A stretch of 22,166 nt of DNA from Candidatus Micrarchaeia archaeon (GCA_041500405.1 JBGQMB010000015.1:1-22166), one strand, 5' to 3'. Positions 1,424 through 22,166 are shown, numbered from the stretch's first letter. A program made the numbers and translations. Notes: a model not told the origin generated them from the sequence alone.

Positions 1424-2692
1424 TCACCTGAACAGCGAGCTTCCGAAAATGAACGCCGCAAGCATTATTGTTATCAGCAGCATTATGATTCCTGCAATGA
1501 GATGCATCTGCCTGACATATTTGTCCCTCATCGCAAGTATCTCTCCTGGGTCCTTTATGCCGAACGCGACGATGACCGCTATCGCAACAAGCGGAACCAC
1601 GAATATGAAGTTATAAAACAGGAGGTACCCTATTGCCTTGAAGAATTCCGCAGTCCAGATGTTGGTCAGGGACAGCATGCTGAGTATCATCAGGTATGGG
1701 CCTGAAGAGCACGGCAAAAGGAACAATGAGCAGAATACCGCAACAACCGCCACCATCGGAAGCGAGGTCGCCATTGCCATCACCTTCTGGAGATGCGGCC
1801 TCAGGAAAAGCGGTATCTCTATGGATTCCATGCCTGGGCGGTAGGAGAAATACGCCCTTATCTCAAGGATTGTTATGATTGCGGTTATTGCCACCATCAA
1901 ATAGAAGAAATATTTCTGTATGCTGATGTCGCCGACAACCTTCATCACGCCAATGCCCATCATGAAATAGCAGACAAAGACCACTGCCGTGAACAAAAGC
2001 CCGCTCATCAGCACGCTCTTCTTGCCCTTTTTCTCCAGCGTTATGGCAAGCAGCATGGCCATCACTGCCATGGTGCATGGGTTTATGGAGTCTGCAACCG
2101 CCGCGGGTATCAGCACCATCAGCGGTATCTCGTTTGACGCTTGTGTGGACGAGACGCTTGCGTTTCCGGTCAGGTTGAGGTCTGTCCCGGTTTGATATTC
2201 GAAGCTCTCGTTCTGCCTTATTTTGTCCATCAATTGTTCCATCTGCACGCTCGTGTAAGCGCCTGCGGGACATCCTTTATCTTCACAAAGCTGGATTATC
2301 TTTATTATGTCCTCCCTGGGCAGCTCCCCGACTATCATCAGCTTGCCGTTTATTATGGTCGTCGGTATTCCGCCCTGCGAGGCATCATACCCGAACTTCC
2401 CGTACATGGCAAGAAGCTCCTTGTTGTTTTCAGGGTCGTACCTCACTTCCTTCAGGGCCAGTGAGAAATTGTATGTTTTTGTTATGTCTGTAAGCGAGGT
2501 TATCATGTTCGCGCAATGCGGGCACCCCAGTCCCTCGTACATCACCATGGTCACGTTGGTTTTGATTGTTGCGTTCCCTTCGCCGCCAATTGCCTCGCCT
2601 AGGCATCCTGGGGCAAGCATGATGGCTGCCATTATCGCCAGCGCAAGGAGAATCCTGGCAATGTTCATAGATGTGGATTTTTTTATAACCAT
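1424..2692 (-). CDS. Thioredoxin/glutaredoxin domain (CPHC) fused to a CcdA/DsbD-like transmembrane electron-transfer domain
   Basis: Signal peptide ending APGC, then GCPHC and cis-Pro motif GIPT. C-terminal ~6 hydrophobic helices with DSINPCTM and LLPCSSGPY, the two Pro-Cys motifs of the CcdA/DsbD family. Confidence 0.85.
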   Translation of the reverse strand: MVIKKSTSMNIARILLALAIMAAIMLAPGCLGEAIGGEGNATIKTNVTMVMYEGLGCPHCANMITSLTDITKTYNFSLALKEVRYDPENNKELLAMYGKFGYDASQGGIPTTIINGKLMIVGELPREDIIKIIQLCEDKGCPAGAYTSVQMEQLMDKIRQNESFEYQTGTDLNLTGNASVSSTQASNEIPLMVLIPAAVADSINPCTMAVMAMLLAITLEKKGKKSVLMSGLLFTAVVFVCYFMMGIGVMKVVGDISIQKYFFYLMVAITAIITILEIRAYFSYRPGMESIEIPLFLRPHLQKVMAMATSLPMVAVVAVFCSLFLLPCSSGPYLMILSMLSLTNIWTAEFFKAIGYLLFYNFIFVVPLVAIAVIVAFGIKDPGEILAMRDKYVRQMHLIAGIIMLLITIMLAAFIFGSSLFR

Positions 2693-2707: not shown

Positions 2708-3157
2708 TTAGCTTAGGGCAGAGACTTCGGAATTGCCGAAAACGCCGGACGGACATTTCCTGTTTCCGCAAAGCTCGATCGCCTTTATCCAGTTTTTGAT
2801 TGACAGCTCGCCGATTATCATCATCTTTCCGTTGATTACCATGGTCGGGACGCCGCCATCGTCTGGATTGTACCCGAATGCCCCGTACTTCGCGTTCATC
2901 TCGTCCTGGTTTGTCTTGTTGTTCCACACTTCCTTCTTTGCCATGCTAATATTGTAAGATTTGTTCAGCGCGTTCAACGTCGTCATGGTATTCTCGCAGT
3001 GCGTGCACCCGTCCCCATAATACATCAGTATGCTTACGCTCACGTTCTTCCTGTCGGTCCCGTTCAGGACCTTTTCAACATCCTCGTTGCTGACCTGCTC
3101 TGCGCATCCGCAAATTAGAATAATAACAAACAAGACGGCCAATGCGCCCTTATTCAT
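2708..3157 (-). CDS. Secreted or lipid-anchored thioredoxin/glutaredoxin-like protein (CTHC)
   Basis: Signal peptide with lipobox-like ICGC, then GCTHC and GGVPTMVINGK. Clearly paralogous to the N-terminal domain of 1424..2692. Confidence 0.85.
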   Translation of the reverse strand: MNKGALAVLFVIILICGCAEQVSNEDVEKVLNGTDRKNVSVSILMYYGDGCTHCENTMTTLNALNKSYNISMAKKEVWNNKTNQDEMNAKYGAFGYNPDDGGVPTMVINGKMMIIGELSIKNWIKAIELCGNRKCPSGVFGNSEVSALS

Positions 3158-3440
3158 CCTTCTTCTTCCTCCTTGCCAGGGATGCCAGCGTTCCGCTTAT
3201 CCTTTTTATCTTTATCCTGTCCTTTGAGCACAACAGCGCCGCGGCAACCTCTCTCGCAGAGCTTCTTTCCACCCTTATGGTTTCAGCATTTCCGTCCTTC
3301 CTTATGGGCCTGAACATGATTCTTCCGAAGCCGGATGTGCCGAAAAAGCCGAGCAGGTACGCGCCTATGTCTGTTTTTCCTATATTTTCCAGCTCGATGT
3401 ACCTTGAATCAGGCCTATGCGACGGTTTGTATGTTCTCAT
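3150..3440 (-). CDS. rnp2: RNase P protein Pop5/Rpp14 family (short form)
   Basis: 96 aa with the family pattern: N-terminal SRYI, FGTSG, IRVER, AAALL, and C-terminal ISGTL. Overlaps both neighbouring genes, as expected in an operon. Confidence 0.7.
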   Translation of the reverse strand: MRTYKPSHRPDSRYIELENIGKTDIGAYLLGFFGTSGFGRIMFRPIRKDGNAETIRVERSSAREVAAALLCSKDRIKIKRISGTLASLARRKKKDE

Positions 3441-4411
3441 TTTAGGTATATCCCCGTTTTCTGGTAATTGCCAATGAATATTGTTGCTATGGACCTTTCA
3501 ATCTCGGAGAACAGCCCGCCGCTTTGGCTCGAGGAGTATGACACTTCGCAGACGTCTGGCTTTTTGTCATATGTCATGTTTGCCAAATCCGCGGCCTTCC
3601 TTATCGCGTCGTCCTTGCTGCCAACCATGTCCGCAAGGCCGTAATTCACCGCCTGCTTTCCGGACACTATCCTGCCGTCTGTAAGGTTTGCCAGGTCAGC
3701 GCTCCTTATCCTGTTGCCCCTGCTTTGCTTAAGCACGTTTACAAAGTCCTGGTAAATCTCGTCTATTATGCCCTGCATTATTGCCGTTTCCTCGGCATCG
3801 GCGGTTTTGTACTCAGAAAGGAAGTCCTTGTGCTCAGCGCTCTTTATCGCGGATATGTTGACGCCCACTTTCTCCATAAGGCCCGTTATGTCCATCGTGA
3901 GCGATATCACGCCTATGCTTCCTGTTATGGTCTCCGGTTCAGTCACTATATAATCAGACCCCAGGGCAACATAATAGCCTCCGCTTGCCGCGGTCTCGTA
4001 AAGGTATGCCACGCTGGTCTTGTTGAGGTTTTTAACCGCCTCGTATATCTGGCGGGACGGTATGACGCTTCCGCCCGGGCTGTTTATTCTCACAACAACA
4101 GCCTTGACCTCATCCCTGCCGTCCAGTGCGGATATAGCGCTGGCAATCTCCTCTCCCCCCGGAGAGCCTGAGGAGAACAGCGTTGCAGGCGTTCCCTCGG
4201 ACGAAATTTCGCCGTCAATGTTCACGACGGCGACGCAGTCCCGGAATGACAGATTGGCAGAGCCGAAGAACATCAGTATGCCGATTGCCGCAAAAAGGCC
4301 TATCGCTATCACCGCGGCGCCGAAGAACACCAACTTCCGCTGCATGTTTTCCCCAACCGAAAACTGCAGTGCGCCATGCTTCCTATAGTCCTTCTGCCCT
4401 GTTCCGTCCAT
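3437..4411 (-). CDS. sppA: Signal peptide peptidase SppA (S49, 36K type)
   Basis: N-terminal TM helix, INSPGGS, AASGGYY (catalytic Ser), TGSIGV, HKD. Start moved from the track's 4456 to ATG 4411, 24 nt below a TATA box; ATG 4345 is also possible. Confidence 0.92.
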   Translation of the reverse strand: MDGTGQKDYRKHGALQFSVGENMQRKLVFFGAAVIAIGLFAAIGILMFFGSANLSFRDCVAVVNIDGEISSEGTPATLFSSGSPGGEEIASAISALDGRDEVKAVVVRINSPGGSVIPSRQIYEAVKNLNKTSVAYLYETAASGGYYVALGSDYIVTEPETITGSIGVISLTMDITGLMEKVGVNISAIKSAEHKDFLSEYKTADAEETAIMQGIIDEIYQDFVNVLKQSRGNRIRSADLANLTDGRIVSGKQAVNYGLADMVGSKDDAIRKAADLANMTYDKKPDVCEVSYSSSQSGGLFSEIERSIATIFIGNYQKTGIYLK

Positions 4412-4434
4412 GTAATCCCGATGGTTTGGTATCG

Positions 4435-4443
4435 TTTTTAAAC
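4435..4443. promoter_or_regulatory. Candidate bidirectional TATA box (sppA on -, C/D sRNA on +)
   Basis: tttttaaac lies about 24 nt from both ATG 4411 (- strand) and the sRNA 5' stem at 4466 (+ strand). Confidence 0.5.
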
Positions 4444-4465
4444 TTATTGCGGCCATTCATAAACT

Positions 4466-4615: not shown

Positions 4616-5464
4616 CTAAAAAAGCAACAGCTTTGCGTACAGTATCGCCACGATTTCACCGCCGAGAAGGAACGGCATGTACGGGGGCATGCCCTTCATC
4701 ACAATTATCCTTTTTATGCCGAGCTTCTTGAGCTTTTTCACTGCGTCCCTTGTCACAAGCGGCGAGGACTTGAAGATATCCTTTGCCCGCTCGTCCAGCA
4801 TCTTGGGGTTCACGACCTCTTCTTCTGCTTCATTGACATCCGCCTCTCCGCTCATTATGGCATCAAGCTCGTCCTTGTACGTATAATATAGGAATGACAT
4901 CAGGCCAAGGCTTATGACAACCGCAAGTATGGCCGGATTGCCTATTGGCGAGTTTACGTACAATGCCGCAAACAAAAGCGTCATTACGGCCATGCTCGCG
5001 CCCTCCAGGTTCATCTTCAGCTTTGCCCCCAGCTTGGCAAGCCTGTATACAAAATACAGGAAGTTGGTTATCGAGAACAGCATGCCGCTGAACAGCAGCA
5101 CGAACAGGATGAACGGGAAATTCAGGAAAACGCCTGCGGCAACAGGCGCTATCGGAAGCAGAAGCGCCATCGACGGTATTATGAACATCTCCGCCCCGCC
5201 CATGTAGCCCATCCTGTAGAACAGGTAGCATATTATCCCTAGCACGATGGCCTGCGCCCCCTCCATCATGATAAGGTCCTTTGGCGCGGGCAGGGCTATG
5301 AGCGCTGAAATAATGAGTACACAGTAAAGCACGCTGTCCGGTATGTTCTTGTTCTTGAAAAGGTCAAAATACGCGCAAACGGCAAGCATAATCAGCGATG
5401 CCACTATCCTGAGCTGCTCAAAAGGCATTTCCGCATATCCCAATATGAATGATATGTCAATCAT
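4616..5464 (-). CDS. A24 family prepilin/prearchaellin peptidase-like membrane protein (FlaK/PibD-like)
   Basis: Polytopic. YFDL..K.IPD carries the first catalytic Asp; MGGAE sits at the GxGD position with Asp replaced by Glu. C-terminal PYMPFL motif. Confidence 0.8.
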   Translation of the reverse strand: MIDISFILGYAEMPFEQLRIVASLIMLAVCAYFDLFKNKNIPDSVLYCVLIISALIALPAPKDLIMMEGAQAIVLGIICYLFYRMGYMGGAEMFIIPSMALLLPIAPVAAGVFLNFPFILFVLLFSGMLFSITNFLYFVYRLAKLGAKLKMNLEGASMAVMTLLFAALYVNSPIGNPAILAVVISLGLMSFLYYTYKDELDAIMSGEADVNEAEEEVVNPKMLDERAKDIFKSSPLVTRDAVKKLKKLGIKRIIVMKGMPPYMPFLLGGEIVAILYAKLLLF

Positions 5465-8672: not shown

Positions 8673-9197
8673 ATGCACAGCCTTGTTCCAAGCAAAGTGT
8701 TTTTCGTAAAGGGCGTCGGCAGGCACGCCGACCGGCTGAACTCATTCGAGGAGGCGCTTCGGGACGCCGGCATACAGATGTTCAACCTCGTTACCGTTTC
8801 CAGCATAATCCCCCTGCATTGCGAAATCGTGCCTGCCTCAAAAGGCCTGAAATGCCTCGAGCCGGGCGAGATTGTCTTTTGCGTGATGGCAAGGACATCA
8901 ACCAACAAGGCCGCGCCGATTTCAGCCTCAATAGGATGCGCACTGCCCGCAGACAAAAACAGCTATGGTTATCTGAGCGAATACCATTCGTCCAGTGATT
9001 CCGAAAAAAAGGCGGGGGATTATGCCGAAGGCCTTGCGGCCTCGATGCTCGCGTCCGCGCTTGGCAAAAAGAGCCCAAGGATATCCAAGACAACAAACTT
9101 CACGCAAACGGCAATGGGAAAGGAAGGCGTTTGGACAATAGTGGTCTCCGCGGCGGTGTTTGTCCTGCCGGACGGCATTGCCAAAAGGAAGGAATAA
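8673..9197 (+). CDS. pdaD: Pyruvoyl-dependent arginine decarboxylase
   Basis: VP.KVFF..GVG.H..RL.SFE.ALRDAGI..FNLV.VSSIIP with the Ser-Ser autocleavage site, plus GYLSEYH and W..VVSAAVFV. TATA-like TTATAAA at 8631-37. Confidence 0.93.
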   Translation: MHSLVPSKVFFVKGVGRHADRLNSFEEALRDAGIQMFNLVTVSSIIPLHCEIVPASKGLKCLEPGEIVFCVMARTSTNKAAPISASIGCALPADKNSYGYLSEYHSSSDSEKKAGDYAEGLAASMLASALGKKSPRISKTTNFTQTAMGKEGVWTIVVSAAVFVLPDGIAKRKE

Positions 9198-11234: not shown

Positions 11235-11257
11235 GGTGCTGGTCTTGCCACAAATCG

Positions 11258-11326
11258 TTTAAATACCTGCCTTTTGCAGATGTTGCCATTCACCCACTTT
11301 TTTAAACCCTTTCTTCAATAAAAGGG
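11258..11326. promoter_or_regulatory. Divergent promoter region between serS and the giant ORF
   Basis: TATTTAAA on - (11258-65) lies ~24 nt above the serS ATG. TTTTTTAAA on + (11298-11306) lies ~24 nt above ATG 11330. Inverted repeat CCCTTT-N8-AAAGGG at 11307-11326. Confidence 0.5.
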
Positions 11327-11329
11327 AAT

Positions 11330-14300
11330 ATGGCATCCGCCAACAATAGCTTATATACAGTAGTCCTTTTGTTCGTCGCCCTGCTGGGCGCTGCCATGCT
11401 CATTTCCGGGGAAAACCAAGTCGGGGAAACGCATTATAGCCAATCATCTTTCCCCATGCTGGGCTTTTACGCGGAAAGCGACACTGATGCCGTTTTAGCC
11501 TGCGAGCTGTCCATAGGCGGCAATTCCGTCTATTCCAATGATTCCATTGCCAACGGAACGCAGATAGAGGCGCGTTCCAATTCATCCCTTTCCGACGGGC
11601 AATACCTGTGGGAAATGCGGTGCTCTGATTCCGGTGGCTCAGCCATTGCAGAATCCGGCATACTTGTTATAGACACTGTCCAGCCCTCTGTTTCAATAAA
11701 CGCGGCATGCAGCAACAATGCGCTTTCAATAAACGCATCGGCAGATGACGCCAACCCGTATTACATCGAGGCAAACGCCACCGACGCGTCTGGGATATTA
11801 GTTATGTCCGCTTCTGGAAATTCATCCGTATTCATTGAGATTTCGCCCGTGTCCGCCGGCGCGTACACCATAACCGCAATGGCGCTGGACATGGCAGGAA
11901 ACGCGGGCTATGCGGTTTTTGAGGCAACGGCCGAATGCGCAAACGCGTCCGCGCAAAACGAAAGCGTCGAAACAGCAACAGAAAACGAGACCATAAACGA
12001 GACAGTATCCCCGCCAGAGGAGAACATAACTGAAGAGAACCAAACTATCATCTCCAATGTTTCTGAAGGCAATGAATCTGCGGAATTAGAAAACGCAACG
12101 GAGATGAACCAAACCATCAACGAGACCGTTCCCGAGCCGCCAAAGAACAAGACCAGGGAGGAAGGCTACGGCATTATGGGCGTCGGAGGCCCTGTGCTGA
12201 ACTTTGTTTCGCCAACGCCGGACGACGGTTCTATAGTTCATTCAAACAATATTACAGTCAACGTCACTTCCGATGAAAACCTGAGTTCATGCTACTTTAA
12301 CATCAACGCAACCGGCTTATGGACCAATGTAAAACATCTGGGCGTCAACGGCGGCATTTTTGACTACAATGCCTCAATAGGCGCAGGCGGCTATGCATCA
12401 TCCAATGCACTGAACGTCAAGACTGTTATGGCAGGCGCATTCGACACCTGCTATCTCCTTTCCAACGGCAACTCCACATGCGTGGGCATCAACAATTATG
12501 GCGAGGCAAACAACTATACGGGCGGCGACGCGATTGCGGCTGTGGCGGGCGATACGGAACACACCTGCTACCTGCTCAGCAACGGCAACTCCGCCTGCTA
12601 CGGCGAAAACAGTTACGGCGAATCAACCAGCTACACCGGCGGCGACGCAATCGCGGTCGCGACAGGATATCATCACACTTGTTATATTCTTTCAAACGGT
12701 AGCTCCGCCTGCTACGGCACCAGCAACTGCAACGGCAACTCGCCATGCTTTGGCAGCAATGGGGAATCAACCAACTACACCGGCGGCGACGCAATAGCAG
12801 TTGCGGCAGGACAATTCCATACTTGCTATCTTCTTAGCAATGGCAACTCAACCTGCTATGGCTGGAATGACCGCGGCAGGGCGACCAACTACACGGGCGG
12901 CAACGCAATCGCGCTTTCTGCAGGTGTAGCCCATACTTGCTATCTCCTTTCCAACGGCAGTTCCATATGCTATGGCTACAACGGCTACGGTCAGACAACA
13001 AACTATACGGGCGGCAACGCAATCGCTGTTTCCGCAGGCTATGACCACACATGCTATCTCCTTTCCAACGGAAACTCCACCTGCTATGGCAACAACAACT
13101 GCAAGGGATATGCGCAATGCAGCGGCCAGTCGACCAACTACACAGGCGGAAATGCCATCGCCCTGTCTGCAGGCTATGAACACACATGCTACCTTCTTTC
13201 AAACGGAAACTCCACATGCTTCGGCAGCAACATCTACAACCAGTCAACCAACTACACCGGCGGCGACATAAAAATCCCGTTCGCGCTTGCTAGGAACATG
13301 AATGTGCAAAATGCTGATGCAGACACCTGGGCAGGCGTATCATTGAACCTTTCAGAAGGCTCTTATTTATACAATGCAAACTGCTTGAACGTCACGGGAG
13401 CTTCAAACACAACCGGGAACAGGACAGTGACACTTGAGCTTTACATTTCAATCTCCAATGTCTCGTCAAGAGTCCTCTCAGGGGAGACATCCGCAAATAC
13501 GGTCTGGATTACAGACAAGCTTTCAAACTCAACGGTTGATTATGGAACGACGGCGGCACTTGGGAGCGCCACACCAAACGCTACACTCTCAGCTTCGCAC
13601 AGCGTCACGCTCACGGGCCTCACGCCCCAGATGCTCTATTATTATAATGTTACGTCATGCACCGCGACCGGCACGTGCAACACCAGCGGCCCGTACAACT
13701 TCACCACGGACCTGACCCCGCCGTCGGTCGCCTTTGTTCCGCCCACGCCGGACAACGGCTCAATCGTCCATTCAACCAGCTTTACCGTAAACATCAGCTC
13801 AAGCGAGAACCTGAGCTCCTGTAGCCTTGCGCCTATTATGACGTATAATAGTCTGCCTATGGCAATAGGCGAGCGCCAGTCCTGCTATGTGCTGACAAAC
13901 GGCAATGCCGTATGCTACGGCTCCGATAGCATGGGCGAATTGGCAAACTACACAGGAGGCGACGCAATAGCGGCCGCGGGAGGCCAGCAGTTCACCTGCT
14001 ACCTTCTTTCAAACGGCAATTCCGCCTGCTACGGAGACAATCGCTGGGACCAGTCGACAAACTACACTGGCGGCGACGCCATAGCTCTTTCAGCGAATTA
14101 TGACCACACGTGCTATCTGATTTCAAACGGCAATTCAGTATGCTATGGAAGCTATGACGGAGAGGGCGGCGCGGCTGGACAGACGGTCAACTACACGGGC
14201 GGGAACGCCGTAGGTTTGGCATGCGGACATCTGCACACCTGCTACCTGCTGAACAACAGAACCTCGGTATGCTACGGTTCCAACAGCGAAGGCCAATCGG

Positions 14301-17300
14301 CAAACTACACCGGCGGCAACGCAATCGCGGTCTCCGCAGGAAGGTATTACACCTGCTATCTTCTCTCCAATGGCAACTCCGCTTGCTACGGCAACAACGG
14401 CTACGGCCAGGCAACCAACTACACCGGCGGCAACGCAATCGCGGTCTCCGCAGGGGAAAACCAGGCCTGCTACCTGCTCTCCAACGGCAACTCAGCCTGC
14501 TACGGCAGGAATGACCAAGGCCCTGGCGAGGCAACAAACTACACGGGCGGCAATGCCGTTGCGGTAGTCGCAGGCTGGTATCATACGTGCTATCTGCTGT
14601 CCAACGGCAATTCCGTTTGCTACGGCAGGAACAGCAGCGGCCAATCCGCAAACTATATGGGCGGAGACATAAGAACTCAGTTCCAGGGCGCGCTTCCGTT
14701 CATATTCAATATGCAAATAACCATCAATAATGCGGACGCCGATACGTCGGCAAACGCAACATTCTCCGGCATTCCTGAGAGAGACTATTTATTTTACGCC
14801 AATTGCACGGATTCGCATGGCAATTCAAACATCACCGCAAACAGGACGGTTGCTGTAGAGTACCAGCTTCCAATCTCCGGGGTTTCTTCGACAGTCATAG
14901 CAGGGGAAACATCCGCATATATAATATGGGCAACCGATAAGCCCTCAAACTCCACCGTGAACTATGGCACAACAACAGCGCTTGGAAGCACAACATTCAA
15001 CAGCACCCTCGCCGCATTACACAACAAGACGCTCACGGGCTTAACGCCCCAGACGCTCTATTATTATAATGTTACATCATGCACGGCAACAGGGACATGC
15101 AACACTAGCGGCCCGTACAACTTCACCACAGACCTGACCCCGCCGTCGCTGGACTTCATTGCCCCGACGCCTGCCAATGGCGCAATGCTTCATGCCCGCA
15201 ATCTGACGGTCAATGTCAGCTCCAGCAAGAACTTGACCTCGTGCTCCATTGTCATCAACATAACCAACCAGCTATGGACAAATATAATGCACCTTAACCT
15301 TTTTGGCGGGCGCTTTGACTATAATGCTTCAATCGGCGCCAATAATTATTCCTCATTCAACATGATAAACCGCAACCCTATTGCCACAGGATGGGATCAT
15401 GCCTGTTATCTGCTTAATAGTGGCAACTCAACCTGCTTCGGGGACAACAGCTACAACCAGTCAATCAATTATAGAGGCGGCGACGCAATCGCGGTCTCCG
15501 CAGGAGATAGCAGCACATGCTATCTTCTCTCCAACGGCAACTCAACCTGCTACGGGGACAACGGCTACAACCAGTCAACAAACTACACCGGCGGCAACGC
15601 AATAGCAGTTGCGGCAGGATATTACCACACCTGCTACCTGCTCAGCAACGGCAACTCGGTATGCTATGGCTTCAACACCAGCAACCAAATCCGGCCTTAT
15701 GCCGGCGGCAACGCAATAGCGATTGCAGCAGGCTATTATCACACGTGCTACCTGCTCAGCAACGGCAACTCGGTATGCTATGGCCTCAACGATGTCCGCC
15801 AGGCGACAAACTACACCGGAGGGAATGCAATCGCCCTGGCGGCTGCGGATACCCATGCCTGCTACCTCCTTTCCAACGGAAACTCCACATGCTACGGCGA
15901 CAACGCATGCAACGGCAATTCCCCGTGTTCCGGCGAATCCACAAACTACACCGGCGGCAACGCGATCGCGGTGTCAACCAAGTATGCCCAAACCTGCTAT
16001 CTCCTTTCCAATGGGAATTCCGTCTGTTATGGCTTAAATGGCGACGGCCAGTCAACAAACTACACCGGCGGCGATGCCGTTTCCGTATCCGTAGGAGCCT
16101 ATTTCACCTGTTACCTCCGCTCAAACGGCAACTCCACCTGCTACGGCAACAACAACTGGGGCCAGAGGACCAATTATACAGGCGGAGACATAAGGATCCC
16201 GTTCGTTTTCGCAAGTAACGTGAGCATAAGCAACGCGGATGCCAGCACCTTTGCTGTTCTATCCTTCAGCCTTCCAGATGGCGCATACTCTTATTCCATG
16301 AACTGCACCGACTGGGCCGGCAACTCCAACACGACTAGGAACAGGAGCGTTGTCATGGAGCTTTCCCTTTCGATATATGGCGTTTCGTCAAGCGTCCTGC
16401 CAGGCGAGACCTCCGCATTGCTGCTGTGGAACACCGACAAAAGCTCGAACTCAAGTGTCAACTACGGCACAACAACGGCGCTCGGAACCGTGTCATCCGA
16501 TGGCACACGGTCAACGCTGCACGGCATCACGCTCGCGGGCCTAACGCCCCAGATGCTCTATTATTATAATGTCACGTCATGCACGGCAACAGGGACATGC
16601 AACACCAGCGGCCCGTACAACTTCACCACGGACCTGACCCCGCCGTCGCTCGCCTTTGTCGCGCCCACGCCGGCCAACGGTTCGACAGTCTATTCCAACA
16701 GCGTGACGCTGAACGTTAGCTCCAACGAAAACCTGAGCTCATGCAGCCTTGCGGACCTAGGCACATTCGGCCTTTGGAACAATGTGAGAGCGCTTGGCGT
16801 ATACGGAGGCACATTCGACTACAATGCCTCAACCGGCGTTAACAACTATTCATCGTTCAACATGCTGAACCGCAAGACCGTCGCGGCAGGCGGCCGCCAG
16901 ACATGCTATATTCTCGGCAACGGCAACTCGACATGCTATGGCGACAACAGCTATGGCCCAGGTCAATCGACTAATTACACGGGAGGCAACGCCATTGCGG
17001 TGTCAAGCACCAATTACCACACCTGCTACCTGCTTAACAACGGCAACTCCACATGTTACGGATACAACAGCTACGGTCAAACGACTAGCTACACAGGAGG
17101 CAATGCTGTTGCGGTTTTTGCCAGTTCTTACCACACTTGCTATATTCTCAGCAACGGAAACTCCACCTGCTATGGCGCCAATAATTATGGAATGGCAACT
17201 AACTACTCAGGCGGCAACGCAATCGCGGTCGCGGCTGGCAAATATTTCACCTGCTACCTCCTGAGCAACGGAAATTCCACCTGCTATGGCGATGATACCT

Positions 17301-20300
17301 GCTTTGGTTACACGCCATGCACCGGCCAATCAACCAACTACACAGGCGGCGACGCAGTAGGGATAACTGCCAGCCCATGGCACACCTGTTATCTCCTGTC
17401 AAACGGCAACTCAACCTGCTACGGGTACAACGTCAGCGGAAGCATAAACAGCTACACAGGAGGCAACGCAATTGCTGTCTCTGCAGGAGGATACACTGAG
17501 TATCCCATCACTTCCAAATTCCACACCTGTTATCTCTTATCAAACGGCAACTCAGTCTGCTATGGCTACAACAGCAGCGGCGACACAAACAGCTACACAG
17601 GAGGCAACGCGATAGCGGTCTCGGCAGGCCAATACCAAACCTGCTATCTTCTCACCAACGGCAGCTCCGTATGCTATGGCGAAAACGGCTACGGCCAGTC
17701 ACCCAACTACACCGGCGGCAACATAAAAATCCCGTTCTACAGCGCCAACCTGTCGCTTGCCATTAACAATGCGGGCGCGGACACTTCCGTGACAACTTCG
17801 CCGTCAGGCCTTCCGGAAGGCAGCCATTCGTATTACATGAACTGCACCGACATGCTGGGCAACTCAAACGTGTCTGCAAACAGGATGTTCTATATAGAAT
17901 ACATGCTTCCGATCTCCAATGTCACCTCAACAGTCCTGGCCGGCTACACGTCAGCGTCCGTTAGGTGGATTACTGGCAAGACCTCAAACTCAACTGTGGA
18001 ATACGGAACTACCGATGCGCTCGGAACAGCCGCCTCGAACGGCACGCTCTCTGCATCGCCCAGCGTGACAATCTCCGGCCTGACTCCGCACGAAACCTAT
18101 TATTATAATGTGACGTCATGCACCGCTTTGGGCTTGTGCAATACGTCAGGCCCGTACCAGTTCGTCATGAACACCTCGCCAATGATATCGTTCGTTTCGC
18201 CGACGCCGAACAGCAACACATATGTCACTAGAAGCAATATAGCAATCAACATCTCCATAGATGACACGAACTTTGCCAATGTAACGGCGTATCTGTACAA
18301 TTCAACAGGCCTTCTTTATTCCAACACATCAGCAGACCAGCATTATTTCATAGACTACACCGGCATTCCGGACGGCCTTTACTATTTCAATGCCACCGCA
18401 TTCAACACAGCCGGGGTGCAAAACAGCACCGAGACAAGGAACGTGACTATAGACACGGTCTATCCAACAGTGCAATTCCTTTTCCCCACGCCGGGCAATG
18501 GCGATACGATGCTCAGCGGCAACATGACAATAAATGTAAGCTCCAGCGAGAACCTGAGCTCTTGCAGGCTCAGCATGAATGTCTCTGGCATGTGGAACAC
18601 CAACGTGCAAACCGCCTCGGCAGCCATGTATCACACTTGCTACGTTCTCTCCAACGGCAACTCCACCTGCTACGGCGACACTAGCTGCAACGGCAATACG
18701 CCATGCATAGGCAGCCAAGGCCAGTCAACCAGCTATGTCGGCGGCAACGCCATCGCAGTCGCTGTAAGTTTAGGCAACACCTGCTACATCCTCAGCAACG
18801 GCAACTCACAATGCTACGGAAGCAACGAATATAACGAATCGACCAGCTACACCGGAGGCAACGCGATAGCATTGTCGTCAGGATATTATCACACTTGCTA
18901 CGTTCTCTCCAACGGCAACTCCACCTGCTACGGTTTCAACAACTCGGGCCAGACAACGGCCTATTCTGGAGGGGATGCAATTGCGGTCTCAGCAGCAGGC
19001 TATAACACCTGCTATCTCCGCTCCAACGGCAACTCCACCTGCTACGGCGCCAACACCAGCGGAAGCACCAACCCATACACAAACGGAAATGCGGTAGCGG
19101 TCGCTGCAGGCATAGACAACACCTGCTACCTGCTGAGCAACGGCAATTCCGTCTGCTACGGCTCCAACAACAGTGGCAAGTCAATCTACTACACAGGCGG
19201 CAACGCGATTGCAGTCTCGATTGGATATGCGCATACCTGCTACCTTCTCAGCAATGGCAACTCAATATGCTACGGCGACAACAGCTATGGTATGGCGACT
19301 GCTTATACAGGAGGAGACGCGGTAGCGCTCTCGGCAACAGACGGGCACACCTGCTACATTCTTAGCAACGGCAACTCCACCTGCCATGGTAGGAACGATT
19401 ACAACCAGTCGGCCAACTACAGCGGAGGAAACGTTAAGCTCCAGTTCAGCTCAGGCAGGTATATGGCGCTGAACAATGCGGATGCCAGCACCTGGGCAAG
19501 TGTGGATTTATACAATCTTCAGGACGGCATATATCCATATAGCGTAAATTGCAGTGACATCGCAGGTAACTCGAACACAACGGAAACAAGGAACATCTCG
19601 GTTGAGCTTTTACTGAAGATATCCAACATCTCGGCATACACAGAGCCGGGCGAGACCTCGGAACAGATAACATGGACAACGGACAAGGCATCCAATTCAA
19701 CGCTAAGCTACGGCAACACGACGGACCTGGGAACAGGGCTCTCAAATGGCACATCATCCATTTCGCACAGTATAGTAATCACGGGACTCACGCCCCAGAC
19801 AACCTATTACTATAACATCACCTCGTGCACGCCAAGGGGCACGTGCAGCATATCCGGCCCATACTCATTCCTAACCAACGTCCTGCCGGCCCTTGACTTC
19901 ATATCCCCGACGCTCGGCAACGGCACGACAGTCCATTACAAGGACATAACAGTCAACATAAGCTCCAGCGAAAACCTAACGTCATGCACGCTCAGCACCA
20001 ACGCGACGTTCGCGCTTTGGGAAAACATAAGTCACCTTGGCATATACGGCGGAAGGTTCGACTACAACGCATCAGCCGGCGTCAACAACTACTCATCGCC
20101 GAACATGAATAACAGGAAGACAATCGCCTCAGGGGACTTCCATACGTGCTATGTGCTCAGCAACGGCAGCTCAGCCTGCTTCGGCAACAACTCATACGGC
20201 CAGGCAACCAACTACACAGGAACCAACGCCATATCCGTGGCAGCAGGAAGCAAGCACACGTGCTACCTGTTGTCCAACGGCAACTCCACCTGCTACGGCG

Positions 20301-22166
20301 ACAACACCTACGGCAAGGCATACGCATACACCGGCGGGAATGCCATAGCGGTCGCCGCAGGCGACAAGCATACCTGCTACCTGCTCAGCAACGGCAACTC
20401 GTCCTGCTGGGGAGCAACCAGCTGCATTGTAATAATGGGGAACCCGGTCTGCTCCGGCTACTTCAACCAGTCGACAAGCTACACAGGGGGCGACGCGATA
20501 GCCATTGCGGCAGGCAGGAACTTCACCTGCTACCTTCTCAGCAACGGCAACTCTGCATGCTTCGGGGACAACGGCTACAACCAGTCAGTCAATTATACAG
20601 GAGGCGACGCAATCGCGGTCTCGGCAGGCGTATACCATACCTGCTATCTCCGCTCAAACGGCAACTCTGCATGCTACGGCGACAACAGCTGCAACGGCAG
20701 CGGAAGCTCAATCTGCAGCGGCCAGGCAACCAATTACACAAAAGGAGATGCGATAGCAGTATCCGCAGGGGGCTGGCATACGTGCTACCTCAAGCCAAGC
20801 GGCAACTCGATATGCTACGGGACTGACGGCAGTGCATACGCTAGCGTAGGATATATCGCCGCCCCAGGCTGCAGGTGTTATATCGGCCTTTACTCTTCCG
20901 GATGCACATGCACAGCACCGCCACGCGCCACTGTCGGCGGCGACAACAGGACCGCAAACTATACGGGAGGCGATGCCATAGCGGTTTCAACAGGCCTTTA
21001 CCACACCTGTTATCTTCTCACCAACGGCAACTCCACCTGCTACGGCGCATACAACTATACCATGTCATTAGGTCTGTATGGTTCTTCTTACAGCTCAACG
21101 CCGGTGCCCAACTACACCAACGGAAACCTGAAATTCCCGTTCAGGGACGTCAGCAGCATGTCGCTGGGCATTGCCAACGCTGGCGCAGGCACGACGGCGG
21201 ACATTCCGCTGTACAACATATCCGAAGGCAGCTTTTCGTATTCCGTCAACTGCACGGACGAATCCGGAGGCACCAACAGGACGGAAACAAGGACTTTCAC
21301 GGTCGAGCTGAGCCTGTTGCTGTACAACGTTTCCGCAAGGGTGCTGGAGGGCGACACGACTGCGCTCATAACATGGAACAGCGACAAGAACTCCAACTCA
21401 ACGCTTGGATACGGAAGCACCACCGCGCTCGGGACAGCGGCATACAACAGCACTTCATCGGTTTCGCACAGCATATTCATAGAGGGACTTGTGCCAAACC
21501 AGCTGTACCACTTCAACATATCATCGTGCACGCCAAGCGGCACATGCAACTCAAGCGGGAACTTCACGTTTATAGCGGACCACACGCCGCCTTCGCTGGC
21601 ATTCTCGGCGCCGACGCCTGACAATAACACGCTAACCCGCATAAACAACATGACCATGCTCATCAACTCCAGCGAGGACCTCAGCTCATGCCAGCTTTCC
21701 ATGGTCACAGGAGGCCTTTGGACAAACATTATGCACCTAAACATATACGGCGGGCGCTTTGACTACAACGCCTCAATCGGCGTGAACAACTATTCCTCGT
21801 TCAACATGCTGAACCGCAAGACGATAGCCGCAGGCTCCTCCCATACATGCTACCTTCTTTCAAACGGCAACTCCACCTGCTACGGAGACAATGGCTACAA
21901 CCAGTCATCTAACTATACCAGAGGCGACGCGATATCCGTAGCTGCAGGCTATGATTACACCTGCTACCTCCGCTCAAACGGCAACTCGACATGCTACGGC
22001 TCCAACGGCAACGGCCAGTCAATCAATTATACTGGCGGCGACGCCATTTCCGTGTCTGGAGGCGGATATACGACTTGCTACCTGCTCAGCAACGGCAACT
22101 CCACCTGCTACGGAGACAATGGCTATAATCAGGCAACCAACTACACCGGCGGCAACGCAATAGAGG
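11330..22166 (+). CDS. Giant secreted surface glycoprotein (at least 3612 aa, 3' end outside the window): repeated Ig-like / inserted RCC1-like beta-propeller / FN3-like modules
   Basis: Manual translation from ATG 11330 (MASANNSLYTVVLLFVALLGAAMLISG, hydrophobic signal) found no stop up to 22166. The track lists no + ORF in this frame after 11330, consistent with no stop. 45 blade repeats are visible in the window. Confidence 0.93.
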   Translation, partial: MASANNSLYTVVLLFVALLGAAMLISGENQVGETHYSQSSFPMLGFYAESDTDAVLACELSIGGNSVYSNDSIANGTQIEARSNSSLSDGQYLWEMRCSDSGGSAIAESGILVIDTVQPSVSINAACSNNALSINASADDANPYYIEANATDASGILVMSASGNSSVFIEISPVSAGAYTITAMALDMAGNAGYAVFEATAECANASAQNESVETATENETINETVSPPEENITEENQTIISNVSEGNESAELENATEMNQTINETVPEPPKNKTREEGYGIMGVGGPVLNFVSPTPDDGSIVHSNNITVNVTSDENLSSCYFNINATGLWTNVKHLGVNGGIFDYNASIGAGGYASSNALNVKTVMAGAFDTCYLLSNGNSTCVGINNYGEANNYTGGDAIAAVAGDTEHTCYLLSNGNSACYGENSYGESTSYTGGDAIAVATGYHHTCYILSNGSSACYGTSNCNGNSPCFGSNGESTNYTGGDAIAVAAGQFHTCYLLSNGNSTCYGWNDRGRATNYTGGNAIALSAGVAHTCYLLSNGSSICYGYNGYGQTTNYTGGNAIAVSAGYDHTCYLLSNGNSTCYGNNNCKGYAQCSGQSTNYTGGNAIALSAGYEHTCYLLSNGNSTCFGSNIYNQSTNYTGGDIKIPFALARNMNVQNADADTWAGVSLNLSEGSYLYNANCLNVTGASNTTGNRTVTLELYISISNVSSRVLSGETSANTVWITDKLSNSTVDYGTTAALGSATPNATLSASHSVTLTGLTPQMLYYYNVTSCTATGTCNTSGPYNFTTDLTPPSVAFVPPTPDNGSIVHSTSFTVNISSSENLSSCSLAPIMTYNSLPMAIGERQSCYVLTNGNAVCYGSDSMGELANYTGGDAIAAAGGQQFTCYLLSNGNSACYGDNRWDQSTNYTGGDAIALSANYDHTCYLISNGNSVCYGSYDGEGGAAGQTVNYTGGNAVGLACGHLHTCYLLNNRTSVCYGSNSEGQSANYTGGNAIAVSAGRYYTCYLLSNGNSACYGNNGYGQATNYTGGNAIAVSAGENQACYLLSNGNSACYGRNDQGPGEATNYTGGNAVAVVAGWYHTCYLLSNGNSVCYGRNSSGQSANYMGGDIRTQFQGALPFIFNMQITINNADADTSANATFSGIPERDYLFYANCTDSHGNSNITANRTVAVEYQLPISGVSSTVIAGETSAYIIWATDKPSNSTVNYGTTTALGSTTFNSTLAALHNKTLTGLTPQTLYYYNVTSCTATGTCNTSGPYNFTTDLTPPSLDFIAPTPANGAMLHARNLTVNVSSSKNLTSCSIVINITNQLWTNIMHLNLFGGRFDYNASIGANNYSSFNMINRNPIATGWDHACYLLNSGNSTCFGDNSYNQSINYRGGDAIAVSAGDSSTCYLLSNGNSTCYGDNGYNQSTNYTGGNAIAVAAGYYHTCYLLSNGNSVCYGFNTSNQIRPYAGGNAIAIAAGYYHTCYLLSNGNSVCYGLNDVRQATNYTGGNAIALAAADTHACYLLSNGNSTCYGDNACNGNSPCSGESTNYTGGNAIAVSTKYAQTCYLLSNGNSVCYGLNGDGQSTNYTGGDAVSVSVGAYFTCYLRSNGNSTCYGNNNWGQRTNYTGGDIRIPFVFASNVSISNADASTFAVLSFSLPDGAYSYSMNCTDWAGNSNTTRNRSVVMELSLSIYGVSSSVLPGETSALLLWNTDKSSNSSVNYGTTTALGTVSSDGTRSTLHGITLAGLTPQMLYYYNVTSCTATGTCNTSGPYNFTTDLTPPSLAFVAPTPANGSTVYSNSVTLNVSSNENLSSCSLADLGTFGLWNNVRALGVYGGTFDYNASTGVNNYSSFNMLNRKTVAAGGRQTCYILGNGNSTCYGDNSYGPGQSTNYTGGNAIAVSSTNYHTCYLLNNGNSTCYGYNSYGQTTSYTGGNAVAVFASSYHTCYILSNGNSTCYGANNYGMATNYSGGNAIAVAAGKYFTCYLLSNGNSTCYGDDTCFGYTPCTGQSTNYTGGDAVGITASPWHTCYLLSNGNSTCYGYNVSGSINSYTGGNAIAVSAGGYTEYPITSKFHTCYLLSNGNSVCYGYNSSGDTNSYTGGNAIAVSAGQYQTCYLLTNGSSVCYGENGYGQSPNYTGGNIKIPFYSANLSLAINNAGADTSVTTSPSGLPEGSHSYYMNCTDMLGNSNVSANRMFYIEYMLPISNVTSTVLAGYTSASVRWITGKTSNSTVEYGTTDALGTAASNGTLSASPSVTISGLTPHETYYYNVTSCTALGLCNTSGPYQFVMNTSPMISFVSPTPNSNTYVTRSNIAINISIDDTNFANVTAYLYNSTGLLYSNTSADQHYFIDYTGIPDGLYYFNATAFNTAGVQNSTETRNVTIDTVYPTVQFLFPTPGNGDTMLSGNMTINVSSSENLSSCRLSMNVSGMWNTNVQTASAAMYHTCYVLSNGNSTCYGDTSCNGNTPCIGSQGQSTSYVGGNAIAVAVSLGNTCYILSNGNSQCYGSNEYNESTSYTGGNAIALSSGYYHTCYVLSNGNSTCYGFNNSGQTTAYSGGDAIAVSAAGYNTCYLRSNGNSTCYGANTSGSTNPYTNGNAVAVAAGIDNTCYLLSNGNSVCYGSNNSGKSIYYTGGNAIAVSIGYAHTCYLLSNGNSICYGDNSYGMATAYTGGDAVALSATDGHTCYILSNGNSTCHGRNDYNQSANYSGGNVKLQFSSGRYMALNNADASTWASVDLYNLQDGIYPYSVNCSDIAGNSNTTETRNISVELLLKISNISAYTEPGETSEQITWTTDKASNSTLSYGNTTDLGTGLSNGTSSISHSIVITGLTPQTTYYYNITSCTPRGTCSISGPYSFLTNVLPALDFISPTLGNGTTVHYKDITVNISSSENLTSCTLSTNATFALWENISHLGIYGGRFDYNASAGVNNYSSPNMNNRKTIASGDFHTCYVLSNGSSACFGNNSYGQATNYTGTNAISVAAGSKHTCYLLSNGNSTCYGDNTYGKAYAYTGGNAIAVAAGDKHTCYLLSNGNSSCWGATSCIVIMGNPVCSGYFNQSTSYTGGDAIAIAAGRNFTCYLLSNGNSACFGDNGYNQSVNYTGGDAIAVSAGVYHTCYLRSNGNSACYGDNSCNGSGSSICSGQATNYTKGDAIAVSAGGWHTCYLKPSGNSICYGTDGSAYASVGYIAAPGCRCYIGLYSSGCTCTAPPRATVGGDNRTANYTGGDAIAVSTGLYHTCYLLTNGNSTCYGAYNYTMSLGLYGSSYSSTPVPNYTNGNLKFPFRDVSSMSLGIANAGAGTTADIPLYNISEGSFSYSVNCTDESGGTNRTETRTFTVELSLLLYNVSARVLEGDTTALITWNSDKNSNSTLGYGSTTALGTAAYNSTSSVSHSIFIEGLVPNQLYHFNISSCTPSGTCNSSGNFTFIADHTPPSLAFSAPTPDNNTLTRINNMTMLINSSEDLSSCQLSMVTGGLWTNIMHLNIYGGRFDYNASIGVNNYSSFNMLNRKTIAAGSSHTCYLLSNGNSTCYGDNGYNQSSNYTRGDAISVAAGYDYTCYLRSNGNSTCYGSNGNGQSINYTGGDAISVSGGGYTTCYLLSNGNSTCYGDNGYNQATNYTGGNAIE
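12422..13282 (+). repeat. Propeller 1: 7 tandem RCC1-like blades (coding)
   Basis: Consensus IAVSAGxxHTCYLLSNGNSTCYGxNxYGQSTNYTGGNA (38 aa, 114 nt) x7, ending IKIPF. Confidence 0.9.
13856..14683 (+). repeat. Propeller 2: 7 blades (coding)
   Basis: 7 C-x9-C blades counted by translation, ending IRTQF. Confidence 0.9.
15377..16204 (+). repeat. Propeller 3: 7 blades (coding)
   Basis: 7 blades, ending IRIPF. Confidence 0.9.
16877..17737 (+). repeat. Propeller 4: 7 blades (coding)
   Basis: 7 blades, ending IKIPF. Confidence 0.9.
18611..19447 (+). repeat. Propeller 5: 7 blades (coding)
   Basis: 7 blades, ending VKLQF. Confidence 0.9.
20120..21142 (+). repeat. Propeller 6: 7 blades with four enlarged loops (coding)
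   Basis: 7 blades, ending LKFPF. Blades 3, 5, 6 and 7 carry loop insertions. Confidence 0.9.
21821..22166 (+). repeat. Propeller 7 (partial, 3 blades inside the window)
   Basis: 3 complete blades before the window ends. Confidence 0.85.

Follow-up and report, generated by a model that had tools for sequence, protein, structure and literature searches.

A giant candidate surface fibre of a Micrarchaeota-type archaeon with predicted RCC1-type propellers inserted into immunoglobulin-like domains

The stretch of DNA considered here, which we refer to as the window, is the whole of a 22,166 nucleotide contig (C15) from the genome of a Candidatus Micrarchaeia archaeon (GCA_041500405.1, JBGQMB010000015.1:1-22166), an assembly of 916,473 bases in 60 contigs that is 86.12% complete with 0.21% contamination. 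From position 11330 to 22165 on the plus strand the window carries a single stop-free frame of 3612 codons, which begins with an ATG and is open at its 3′ end, as the contig stops inside the gene. An in-frame stop lies directly upstream, with the stop-to-stop frame starting at 11306, and across these 10.8 kb every other frame is closed. An earlier interpretation made from the DNA without database searches, hereafter the sequence-only reading, had described an open frame of at least 3612 codons encoding a string of propellers on a rod of immunoglobulin-like (Ig) and fibronectin type III-like (FN3) domains. The ORF (open reading frame) listing and the stop-free translation confirm that the gene is real. 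We first describe the architecture of the encoded protein and its continuation beyond the window, then its relatives and its setting in the genome, and finally weigh what such a protein might do.

Overall architecture of the giant protein

Profile searches of the 3612 residues with Pfam place the sequence in familiar domain families. RCC1_2 (PF13540) is matched with an E-value of 1.3e-200 and 645.5 bits over 29 stretches (cut-off 22), Pur_ac_phosph_N (PF16656) with 119 bits over five stretches (cut-off 30), Big_13 (PF19077) with 66.3 bits (cut-off 27) and fn3 (PF00041) with 39.2 bits (cut-off 25). PhoD_N is also matched, and WD40_RLD reaches 141.2 bits, under its cut-off of 150. The RCC1, FN3 and Big families that the sequence-only reading had named for searching are thus all found above cut-off. 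A blade-motif scan gives arrays of 7, 7, 7, 7, 7, 7 and 3 blades, which bears out the claim that each of the six complete arrays has exactly seven, and the FN3-like domains are equally well founded, with the motif W.TDK.SNS occurring six times (aa 726, 1200, 1700, 2213, 2782 and 3349) in addition to the Pfam matches. Six units carry such an FN3 domain, whereas the seventh is followed by plain Ig domains.

The features of the frame, and those of the neighbouring genes discussed later, are collected in Table 1. Ahead of the modules, the acidic linker is evident in the translation as had been described, and the two Ig-like domains proposed to precede it have modest support from Big_13 and from our own Ig hidden Markov model (HMM), with Y_Y_Y matching this region below its cut-off. 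A signal peptide had also been proposed: the hydrophobic segment is there, and it could be a signal peptide or, equally, a signal anchor. As for the repeating module, its parts (Ig, seven blades, FN3) had been rightly recognised, while their order had not, the Ig domain being split by the propeller rather than placed ahead of it. A single uninterrupted Ig domain between modules 4 and 5 (aa 2284-2378) provides a reference for the split copies.

Between the N-terminal half of the Ig domain and blade 1 there is, in 15 of the 20 modules that we extracted from this protein and its relatives, a conserved 33-residue segment with the pattern L-W-x-N-x-x-H-L-G ... G-G-x-F-D-Y-N-A-S ... N-N-Y-S-S-F-N-M. 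It is present in modules 1, 3, 4, 6 and 7 of this protein and absent from modules 2 and 5, and it has a predicted local distance difference test score (pLDDT) below 50 in both of the models described below. That it might plug the propeller, as a segment of the plant receptor CRINKLY4 does, is only a guess.

Table 1. Features of the giant gene and of neighbouring genes in the window (module-relative and profile positions are named as such; other residue numbers refer to the giant protein)
Feature	Position	Strand	Residues	Description
Putative promoter, A/T-rich TATA-like boxes	11258..11329	+		tttaaata at ~11258 and ttttttaaa at ~11299, ~25-30 nt ahead of the ATG; read from the sequence
Start codon and N-terminal hydrophobic segment	11330..11416	+	1-29	Translation; hydropathy at aa 6-29
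Two N-terminal Ig-like domains	11447..11944	+	~40-205	Big_13 29.4 bits, aa 51-116; Ig HMM aa 123-192, independent E-value (iE) 8e-9
Acidic sequon-rich linker	11945..12184	+	~206-285	Glu/Asn/Thr-rich; repeated N-E-T, N-Q-T, N-I-T
Module 1	12185..13720	+	286-797	Ig N-half, 33-aa segment, 7 blades (first Cys aa 374-620), Ig C-half, FN3-like; Ig halves aa 288-355 and 660-702 (Ig HMM)
Module 2	13721..15142	+	798-1271	Split Ig, 7 blades (aa 852-1087), FN3-like; no 33-aa segment; Ig halves aa 798-842 (HMM 1-43) and 1130-1176 (HMM 47-93)
Module 3	15143..16642	+	1272-1771	Split Ig, 7 blades (aa 1359-1594), FN3-like; Ig halves aa 1272-1308 and 1631-1674; the module modelled
33-aa segment of module 3	15263..15370	+		Module residues 41-76
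Module 4	16643..18178	+	1772-2283	Split Ig, 7 blades (aa 1859-2105), FN3-like; Ig halves aa 1772-1807 and 2131-2189
Uninterrupted Ig, Big_13-like	18179..18463	+	2284-2378	HMM 1-94, iE 3.8e-41
Module 5	18464..19885	+	2379-2852	Split Ig, 7 blades (aa 2437-2675), FN3-like; no 33-aa segment; best Pfam Big_13 stretch aa 2712-2756, profile positions 54-98 of 102 only
Module 6	19886..21589	+	2853-3420	Split Ig, 7 blades (aa 2940-3227), FN3-like; long Cys-rich inter-blade loops; Ig halves aa 2853-2893 and 3292-3325
Module 7	21590..22165	+	3421-3612	Ig N-half, 33-aa segment, blades 1-3; ends with the contig, continues on C17
Exported thioredoxin-fold protein	1424..2692	-		One of two; the pair carries CPHC and CTHC motifs
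Exported thioredoxin-fold protein	2708..3157	-		The other of the pair
SppA-type signal-peptide peptidase	3437..4456	-		Peptidase_S49
Prepilin-type peptidase	4616..5464	-		Peptidase_A24

Continuation on a second contig and soundness of the assembly

The last 32 bases of the window are identical to the first 32 of another contig of the same assembly, C17, with the overlap in frame. This 32-mer occurs nowhere else in the genome, and among all contig ends of the assembly it forms the only overlap of at least 20 nucleotides. The frame on C17 (locus L009, 2-2419) adds 805 residues, in which RCC1_2 scores 61.1 bits, and supplies blades 4 to 7, so that the seventh head reaches exactly seven blades. 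The blades are followed by the C-terminal Ig half, two uninterrupted Ig domains, a cysteine-containing Ig-like domain, and sandwiches resembling CarboxypepD_reg and SdrD_B; the frame closes with a Thr/Pro/Gly linker, a hydrophobic helix and a basic tail, of which some 8-13 residues would be cytoplasmic. The stop and the C-terminal anchor that the sequence-only reading had suggested looking for beyond the contig are therefore both located on C17. The joined protein has 4407 residues, a mass of ~459 kDa, a pI of 4.69 and 155 cysteines, with 49 blades in arrays of 7, 7, 7, 7, 7, 7 and 7, and only two segments, aa 6-29 and 4365-4399, are hydrophobic by Kyte-Doolittle hydropathy (19-residue windows above 1.8). 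We take the continuation of C15 into C17 to be the best reading of these contig ends, not a proven one.

A gene with this many repeats invites the suspicion that a chimeric or collapsed region has produced a false long frame. Within the frame, 65 31-mers and 18 41-mers recur exactly, and the contig does terminate inside the gene. Logan contigs from four of four sediment-metagenome runs, two of which may be the source of this DNA, tile positions 11000-22166 (30, 30, 26 and 29 of 30 bins having depth in the respective runs). No one of these contigs covers the whole gene, the pieces ending at shared 31-mers, and there are a few chimeric joints: five are listed at repeats, with one contig per run showing them and one joint seen in three runs, and these look like cross-overs at a k of 31 or paralogues. 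Against an artefact, however, there is no exact internal repeat of 55 nucleotides or more. The other modules are 56-65% identical to module 3 at the protein level, and Tandem Repeats Finder reports a 114-nucleotide (38-codon) period with only 70-78% DNA matches. The four runs agree over the 11,167 bases compared, with four variant places, all single-nucleotide, and no insertions or deletions; the 10.8 kb are open in one frame with all others closed; and the same module order is found in relatives from other genomes. An assembly artefact is, on this evidence, extremely improbable.

The propeller heads

The structure of module 3 was predicted with AlphaFold2 from a 20-row alignment (model md12d3430f3e9; mean pLDDT 79.6, predicted template modelling score 0.61), which replaced a first model from a 7-row alignment with a mean pLDDT of 64.4 and about 30 in the FN3 part. 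In the replacement, the blades have a pLDDT of ~80-93, as does an all-beta stretch at residues 406-500 corresponding to the FN3-like domain (80-93), and values fall below 50 only at residues 41-76 and in two short loops. Comparison by VIA-align with 48,161 chains gave matches spanning model residues 74-349, led by UVR8 (Z 33.0, rmsd 1.9, 265 aligned) and BLIP-II (Z 29.8, rmsd 1.9, 243 of 271 aligned), with RPGR (Z 28.2), PpCR4 (Z 27.6) and ACR4 (Z 25.5) among the others. All RCC1-type rows lie at Z 21-33, while the next rows (phiKZ gp131, propeller lectins and WD40 proteins) are at Z 16 or below. Foldseek with the first model likewise placed ACR4/CR4, UVR8 and BLIP-II on top, and a sequence profile search of the PDB returned BLIP-II and ACR4 (E 1.2e-8). 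The module is thus predicted to close into a seven-bladed propeller, as the sequence-only reading had anticipated, and one of the RCC1/BLIP-II/CRINKLY4 type.

Each of the 49 blades contains a two-cysteine motif, C ... C-[YFWHV]-G, and in the PDB profile search these two cysteines align with the blade cysteines of ACR4. In the 28 blades that have the canonical 38-residue spacing both cysteines are invariant and spaced as C-x9-C. The CR4 preprint describes every blade of CRINKLY4 as stabilised by a disulfide, and it regards these disulfides, along with an N-terminal strand that fills the pore, as unique to CRINKLY4 when BLIP-II and UVR8 are compared with it. By analogy, the C-x9-C pair probably forms a blade disulfide here too. 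Several inter-blade loops carry additional Cys-x-...-Cys inserts, at blade positions that differ between modules.

Propellers nested within Ig domains

An alignment of the seven modules shows a conserved piece of about 40 residues before each propeller (P-S-x-x-F-x-x-P-T-P ... N-V-S-S-S-E-N-L-S-S-C) and another of about 50 residues after it (N-A-D-A-x-T ... L-x-D-G-x-Y-x-Y ... N-C-T-D ... G-N-S-N-x-T-x-N-R). To identify these we used an Ig HMM built on six uninterrupted copies, namely aa 2285-2375 of this protein, two from C17, two from contig C58 and one from the related locus L014. In seven of seven modules, positions 1 to ~29-77 of this HMM are matched before the propeller (iE 4.2e-7 to 1.6e-4, with module 7 weak at 0.048) and positions ~30-60 to 91-94 after it (iE 3.2e-11 to 1.8e-5). 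With hhalign, Ig columns 52-95 align with module columns 361-404 (probability 97.1%, E 7.3e-11), and columns 2-34 of an alignment of 12 N-terminal halves align with Ig columns 2-35 (probability 96.3%, E 1.9e-9). Behind the propellers Pfam Big_13 is matched by the second half of its profile only (54-98 of 102).

When the two Ig halves were folded as separate chains, the interface score ipSAE had a median of 0.53 (0.55, 0.40 and 0.53) against 0.02 for the best control, with the partner at a pLDDT of at least 72 and runs agreeing in at least 95% of contacts. This mark is reached by 116 of 157 solved complexes and by 2 of 215 mismatches, and is weak support, as values of 0.60 or less account for only 18 of the 157 complexes and for both mismatches. 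We regard it as a modest addition to a strong prior from the profiles.

Relatives show other inserts in the same place. The cassette at locus L012 holds a Laminin_G_3 domain at the same site (E 1.2e-23), and in one module of L014 the propeller is replaced by DUF2341 (E 2.3e-21); two further L014 modules have, by eye, a DUF2341-like stretch ahead of the propeller. From the complementary Ig halves and these alternative inserts, the sequences indicate that each propeller is inserted in a loop of a Big_13-like Ig domain, giving a unit of [Ig N-half - head - Ig C-half] - FN3. A plain string of beads, with the propeller standing between Ig and FN3 domains as originally envisaged, is not borne out.

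Conserved and variable positions

Position analysis of the 28 canonical blades finds 11 positions that are at least 93% conserved and two zones of high entropy. The first has its maxima just before the first cysteine, at offsets -4 and -3 (3.55 and 3.23 bits), where 25% and 39% of residues are aromatic, and the second at +13, +15 and +16 (2.98, 2.42 and 2.42 bits), where +16 is aromatic in 54%. Identity is ~20% at these hypervariable positions and ~62% in the blade core. There is no signal of positional orthology among the blades: mean identity is 0.612 for the same position in another module, 0.593 within a module and 0.588 otherwise, and all three classes stand at 0.62 when blade 1 is left out. 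Such near-equal likeness of all 49 blades fits the work of Pereira and Lupas, who rank RCC1/BLIP-II third by population among the groups of highly repetitive propellers. The hypervariable, aromatic-rich patches are likely to be the ligand-contact loops.

The joined protein is also rich in potential glycosylation sites, with 233 N-x-S/T sequons where 500 shuffles average 108.7 +/- 8.5 and reach 136 at most, an approximately twofold enrichment. N-Y-[TS] occurs 40 times, and in canonical blades N-Y-T closes the inter-blade loop. The abundance of sequons suggests that the fibre is glycosylated.

Relatives, distribution and evolution of the module

An exhaustive profile search returned 85,830 proteins at E ≤ 0.001 and 6,328 at E ≤ 1e-30, most of them matching in the propeller or the FN3 part only, with few matches to the whole module. 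A word-indexed protein search gave 39 proteins of 1986-6321 residues, of which P0002, P0003, P0004 and P0005 are closest, the first three at 52-55% identity and P0005 at 36%. P0002 (2388 aa, partial, 55% identity) is annotated by NCBI as a 'fibronectin type III domain-containing protein' of Candidatus Iainarchaeum sp., and the named relatives in general are called FN3-domain or hypothetical proteins. Together with P0003 (4487 aa), P0004, P0005 (3645 aa) and P0045 (6996 aa), the relatives include loci L012-L017 from Micrarchaeota, Micrarchaeia and Iainarchaeum metagenome-assembled genomes (MAGs), and the nearest come from MAGs titled Candidatus Micrarchaeota, Micrarchaeia, Iainarchaeum, Woesearchaeota and Pacearchaeota. 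Whole-module identity is 49-59%, or 41-58% by tblastn over all nine loci. The architecture is therefore found in other DPANN genomes, where the sequence-only reading had suggested looking for it.

Among 183 proteins examined with a blade HMM, 50 have at least two arrays and five have at least five; the maximum among the relatives is six, none having seven or more. In eleven of the 183, counting this protein, one or more propellers lie between the two Ig halves, and this holds for all six arrays of P0005 and all three of both P0003 and P0045. The relatives share the seven-blade arrays with the cysteine pair and the N-terminal hydrophobic segment and, where complete, also end in a transmembrane helix with a basic tail; some carry LamG, DUF2341, subtilase or beta-helix parts instead. 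At L017 (4238-17488, +) a complete 4417-residue protein combines one nested propeller with a subtilase (Peptidase_S8, E 5.2e-39), and at L014 (3-14066, +) a frame of at least 4688 residues contains a nested propeller, FG-GAP repeats and many NPCBM_assoc-like domains.

In a maximum-likelihood tree of 20 modules, which are all those extracted apart from the incomplete module 7, the modules group by protein. Modules 1 to 6, together with the single-propeller proteins of contig C28, L013 and L017, occupy one half of the tree, whose support is weak (82/91, drawn open); support is 98/93 for a group of three L016 modules, 100/100 for the two L015 modules and 100/98 for the pairing of the C28 paralogue with L013. 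Because the modules group by protein, the sequences indicate that the seven heads are the product of lineage-specific amplification followed by divergence and not seven ancient specificities. The modules of relatives are accordingly not one-to-one orthologues of those described here, having been amplified separately in each lineage.

The host and other features of its genome

Upstream of the giant gene are archaeal housekeeping genes for a class-I CCA-adding enzyme, Pus10, an ATP-dependent DNA ligase, SerRS and thymidylate kinase. These neighbours and the DPANN origin of the nearest relatives uphold the assignment of the host to a DPANN archaeon, which is well supported. The two peptidases in Table 1 are encoded on the strand opposite to the giant gene, a few kb upstream of it. 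The larger of the two exported thioredoxin-fold proteins is fused to a multi-pass membrane domain that by eye resembles CcdA/DsbD, although Pfam recognises only Thioredoxin_3 and UPF0715; the pair is possibly extracytoplasmic thiol-disulfide machinery in a genome with cysteine-rich surface giants.

Other giant or contig-cut Ig-rich frames are present on C42 (2-5545), C50 (2-3643), C14 (1-2844) and C6 (19978-27480), with more such surface frames on C18 (15272-21094), C28 (7442-11122, -), C40 (258-1403) and C58. That on C42 is open over all of its 1848 codons with 14 Ig hits, C40 encodes a stand-alone seven-bladed propeller of 382 residues, and on C28 a beta-helix is combined with a single nested propeller and with the anchor also seen in the giant protein. 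A large share of the coding capacity of this ~1-Mb genome is devoted to surface fibres. The C-termini of the family share, by eye, the pattern S-x-x-[KR]-S-P, a hydrophobic helix, G-W-Y and a basic run, seen in L009 (C17, ~2290-2416), L010 (C28), L011 (C58), P0004, P0006, P0007 and P0046. This resembles a tripartite sorting signal; NCBIfam CTERM models (PGF-CTERM and similar) gave no match to it at E up to 1, and the exosortase/archaeosortase family PF09721 has no match in the genome at 86% completeness.

The same genome contains a diversity-generating retroelement (DGR) at C18:11706-13134, within locus L021 (C18:10981-14634), with a reverse transcriptase (PF00078, E 5.7e-21) at C18:12481-13134 and an 87-nucleotide template repeat at C18:12154-12240. 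A variable repeat lies 448 nucleotides upstream of the template, near the 3′ end of a 301-residue ORF (C18:11044-11946), and differs from the template at 20 or more adenines but at none of the 61 non-A positions; another variable repeat, on C3 (minus strand, reverse-complement position 8802), matches 60 of these 61. The giant gene was considered as a further DGR target and rejected, since the template repeat matches C18 and C3 only, not C15 or C17, and the few variant places across the four runs amount to no population hypervariation. Elsewhere on C17, a GyrB gene (L009 4768-7959, -) has an intein, with Intein_splicing lying between DNA_gyraseB and Toprim.

Comparison with known systems

The plant receptor CRINKLY4 (ACR4/PpCR4, PDB 7a0j/7a0k), as described in the preprint, offers a compact seven-bladed, extracellular and N-glycosylated propeller with one cysteine pair per blade. 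At 21-25% sequence identity, its shared features are probably convergent or very distant. Its tumour necrosis factor receptor (TNFR)-like cysteine-rich domain and its kinase are not found here by Pfam, and receptor signalling of the CR4 kind is rejected, as a cytoplasmic domain is lacking. BLIP-II (PDB 1jtd/3qhy) is a secreted prokaryotic seven-bladed propeller with blades of ~40 residues and the best sequence match in the PDB. It differs in being a lone, free domain whose blades lack cysteines and which has neither an Ig/FN3 stalk nor an anchor, and its ligands, class A beta-lactamases, have no bearing on the protein described here.

Giant proteins of related kinds are already in print. West-Roberts et al. 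in 2023 (bioRxiv 10.1101/2023.11.21.568195) reported RCC1-type giant extracellular proteins with many seven-bladed propellers in Oscillospiraceae. According to that preprint these bacterial proteins, reported among genes encoding more than 10,000 residues, have RCC1 (PF00415) along their whole length and are said to be without transmembrane anchors, whereas here 4407 residues contain RCC1_2 blades nested in Ig domains, interleaved FN3 and CarboxypepD_reg domains, and a C-terminal anchor. Giant membrane-bound surface proteins of DPANN archaea comprise SPEARE of nanohaloarchaea (La Cono et al. 2023, PMC10266531) and those of Mia14 (Golyshina et al. 2017, PMC5498576). In these papers, small-genome DPANN archaea likewise devote much coding capacity to signal-peptide-bearing giants with Ig, propeller and LamG domains and a proposed role in host contact; the propellers there are WD40/PQQ-like, Kelch or YVTN rather than RCC1_2, and SPEARE carries a VirB4/TraG-like ATPase domain, whereas no ATPase is found in Pfam scans of our 3612- and 805-residue parts.

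Our literature searches turned up no account, in archaea, of RCC1 propellers nested in Ig domains or of a CRINKLY4-like cysteine staple. Even so, the statement of the sequence-only reading that the architecture is not a described family went too far, given the close relatives with three to six such modules in public databases, the RCC1-type giants of the 2023 preprint and the published giant DPANN propeller/Ig/LamG proteins. The class, that of giant DPANN surface proteins and RCC1-type giant genes, is already recognised, and the present protein is a striking variant and not a new kind.

Proposed function and alternatives

We propose that the gene encodes a type-I membrane glycoprotein fibre of ~460 kDa belonging to a Micrarchaeota-type (DPANN) archaeon. 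It would be exported through its N-terminal hydrophobic signal and anchored by one C-terminal helix, with the short basic tail in the cytoplasm. The ectodomain would form a stalk of roughly twenty beta-sandwiches (Ig-like, FN3-like and CarboxypepD_reg-like), for which ~20 domains of ~4 nm each give an estimated length of ~80 nm. Seven of the Ig domains would be split at one loop, at about position 40-50 of ~95, and each would hold an inserted seven-bladed propeller; the heads would then project sideways, with the load-bearing path running through the sandwiches only. Each 38-residue blade would combine a near-invariant scaffold, including the C-x9-C pair and the N-Y-T sequon, with two short hypervariable aromatic-rich patches that differ between blades as well as between heads. 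Export, disulfides, lateral display and the identity of the binding loops are all features that we infer. The fibre would make multivalent attachments to a surface polymer or to the surface of another cell (host or partner), and its seven non-identical heads would lend it avidity.

Attachment to another cell's surface as a multivalent adhesin is the role that we consider most likely, with a confidence somewhat better than even, because the protein has a signal, a single anchor, many sequons and cysteines, variable aromatic loops on a fold whose characterised members are protein binders, and no enzyme domain (Pfam scans of the 3612- and 805-residue parts detect neither an enzyme nor a carbohydrate-binding module (CBM)). 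The sequence-only reading had put forward a multivalent and multi-specific adhesin. Of this, the reading as an extracellular multi-headed fibre is supported and the heads do differ in sequence at defined loop positions, while the adhesive role and the distinct specificities are inferences.

Some points weigh against this proposal. The family is patchy: at E ≤ 1e-20 the module occurs in 3 of 151 sampled genomes of the phylum (this one, a second from its genus and a third from a different family of its order), so that the lineage's way of life does not generally require it. The nested topology depends on sequence complementarity and a model, and the complex test was passed weakly. The assignment of the hypervariable positions to a binding face leans on a mapping to BLIP-II interface residues such as Trp53, Trp152 and Trp269, with which these offsets presumably coincide when counted on the PDB profile alignment. 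The variation itself could be relaxed drift at loop positions and not selected specificity, given that the modules cluster by protein in the tree and that likeness among the 49 blades does not depend on module or position. Signal cleavage is uncertain because no lysine or arginine precedes the hydrophobic segment at aa 6-29, which thus has no basic n-region. Finally, the join to C17 consists of 32 bases, and among the Logan contigs of the four sediment-metagenome runs no public contig was found to bridge the two; further modules could sit between C15 and C17, or the join could be wrong.

Two other roles for a surface fibre seem to us unlikely, and about equally so. The protein might be a structural component of the envelope, an S-layer-like coat or glycocalyx spacer whose propellers make lattice or self-contacts. 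Its C-terminal transmembrane anchor, heavy sequon load and low pI do resemble those of archaeal surface-layer glycoproteins, the genome has several other giant Ig-rich frames, and Golyshina et al. (2017) count propeller/PKD proteins as surface-layer components of a Micrarchaeon. A core envelope protein, however, would not be expected in so few of the sampled genomes, module number differs among relatives in the manner of lineage-specific amplification, and variation concentrated in loop positions fits recognition better than lattice contacts. Alternatively, the heads might be lectin-like and serve a fibre that captures particles or extracellular polysaccharide instead of a specific host cell. 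The exchange of the propeller for LamG/concanavalin-like or DUF2341 inserts in the same cassette of relatives speaks for this, aromatic-rich variable positions would also suit stacking on sugars, and seven-bladed propeller lectins are among the weaker structural matches (BP39L, Z 15.3; PLL, Z 14.3). Far above these, though, stand BLIP-II, RCC1, UVR8, RPGR and CR4, which are protein binders or receptors, and Pfam scans of the protein detect neither carbohydrate-active enzymes nor CBMs.

An array of BLIP-II-like inhibitor heads, neutralising secreted enzymes of hosts or competitors, would draw on the place of BLIP-II among the best structural and sequence matches. A shared fold does not show a shared function, a membrane-anchored fibre of 4407 residues would be an odd format for an inhibitor, and BLIP-II lacks the blade cysteine pairs; we think this explanation very improbable. 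Returning to the adhesin, a broader proposal can be built on it, in which the split Big_13-like Ig is a general display cassette of DPANN archaea, accepting an RCC1 propeller, LamG or DUF2341, and the seven heads provide several specificities. Taken as one joint claim this is tentative, and we regard it as more doubtful than the adhesive role itself.

Significance

Little is understood of the means by which DPANN archaea recognise and hold the other cells on which they depend. The gene described here is a modular candidate for such a task, with seven separable heads of ~290 residues that are each small enough to express and screen, which brings the question of what a Micrarchaeon binds within reach of a direct test. 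The nested Ig/propeller cassette, a natural domain insertion for display with alternative heads in relatives, may also interest protein engineers. If the broader proposal of a display cassette is true, heads could be exchanged or multiplied while the load-bearing stalk stays as it is, and the per-blade cysteine staple would be an archaeal counterpart of a feature that the authors of the CR4 preprint, comparing it with BLIP-II and UVR8, called unique to plant CRINKLY4. Every blade would then present antibody-like patches rich in tyrosine and tryptophan, with several specificities on each fibre, and a genome-reduced symbiont would be able to recognise two or more host surfaces, or multiple epitopes at once.

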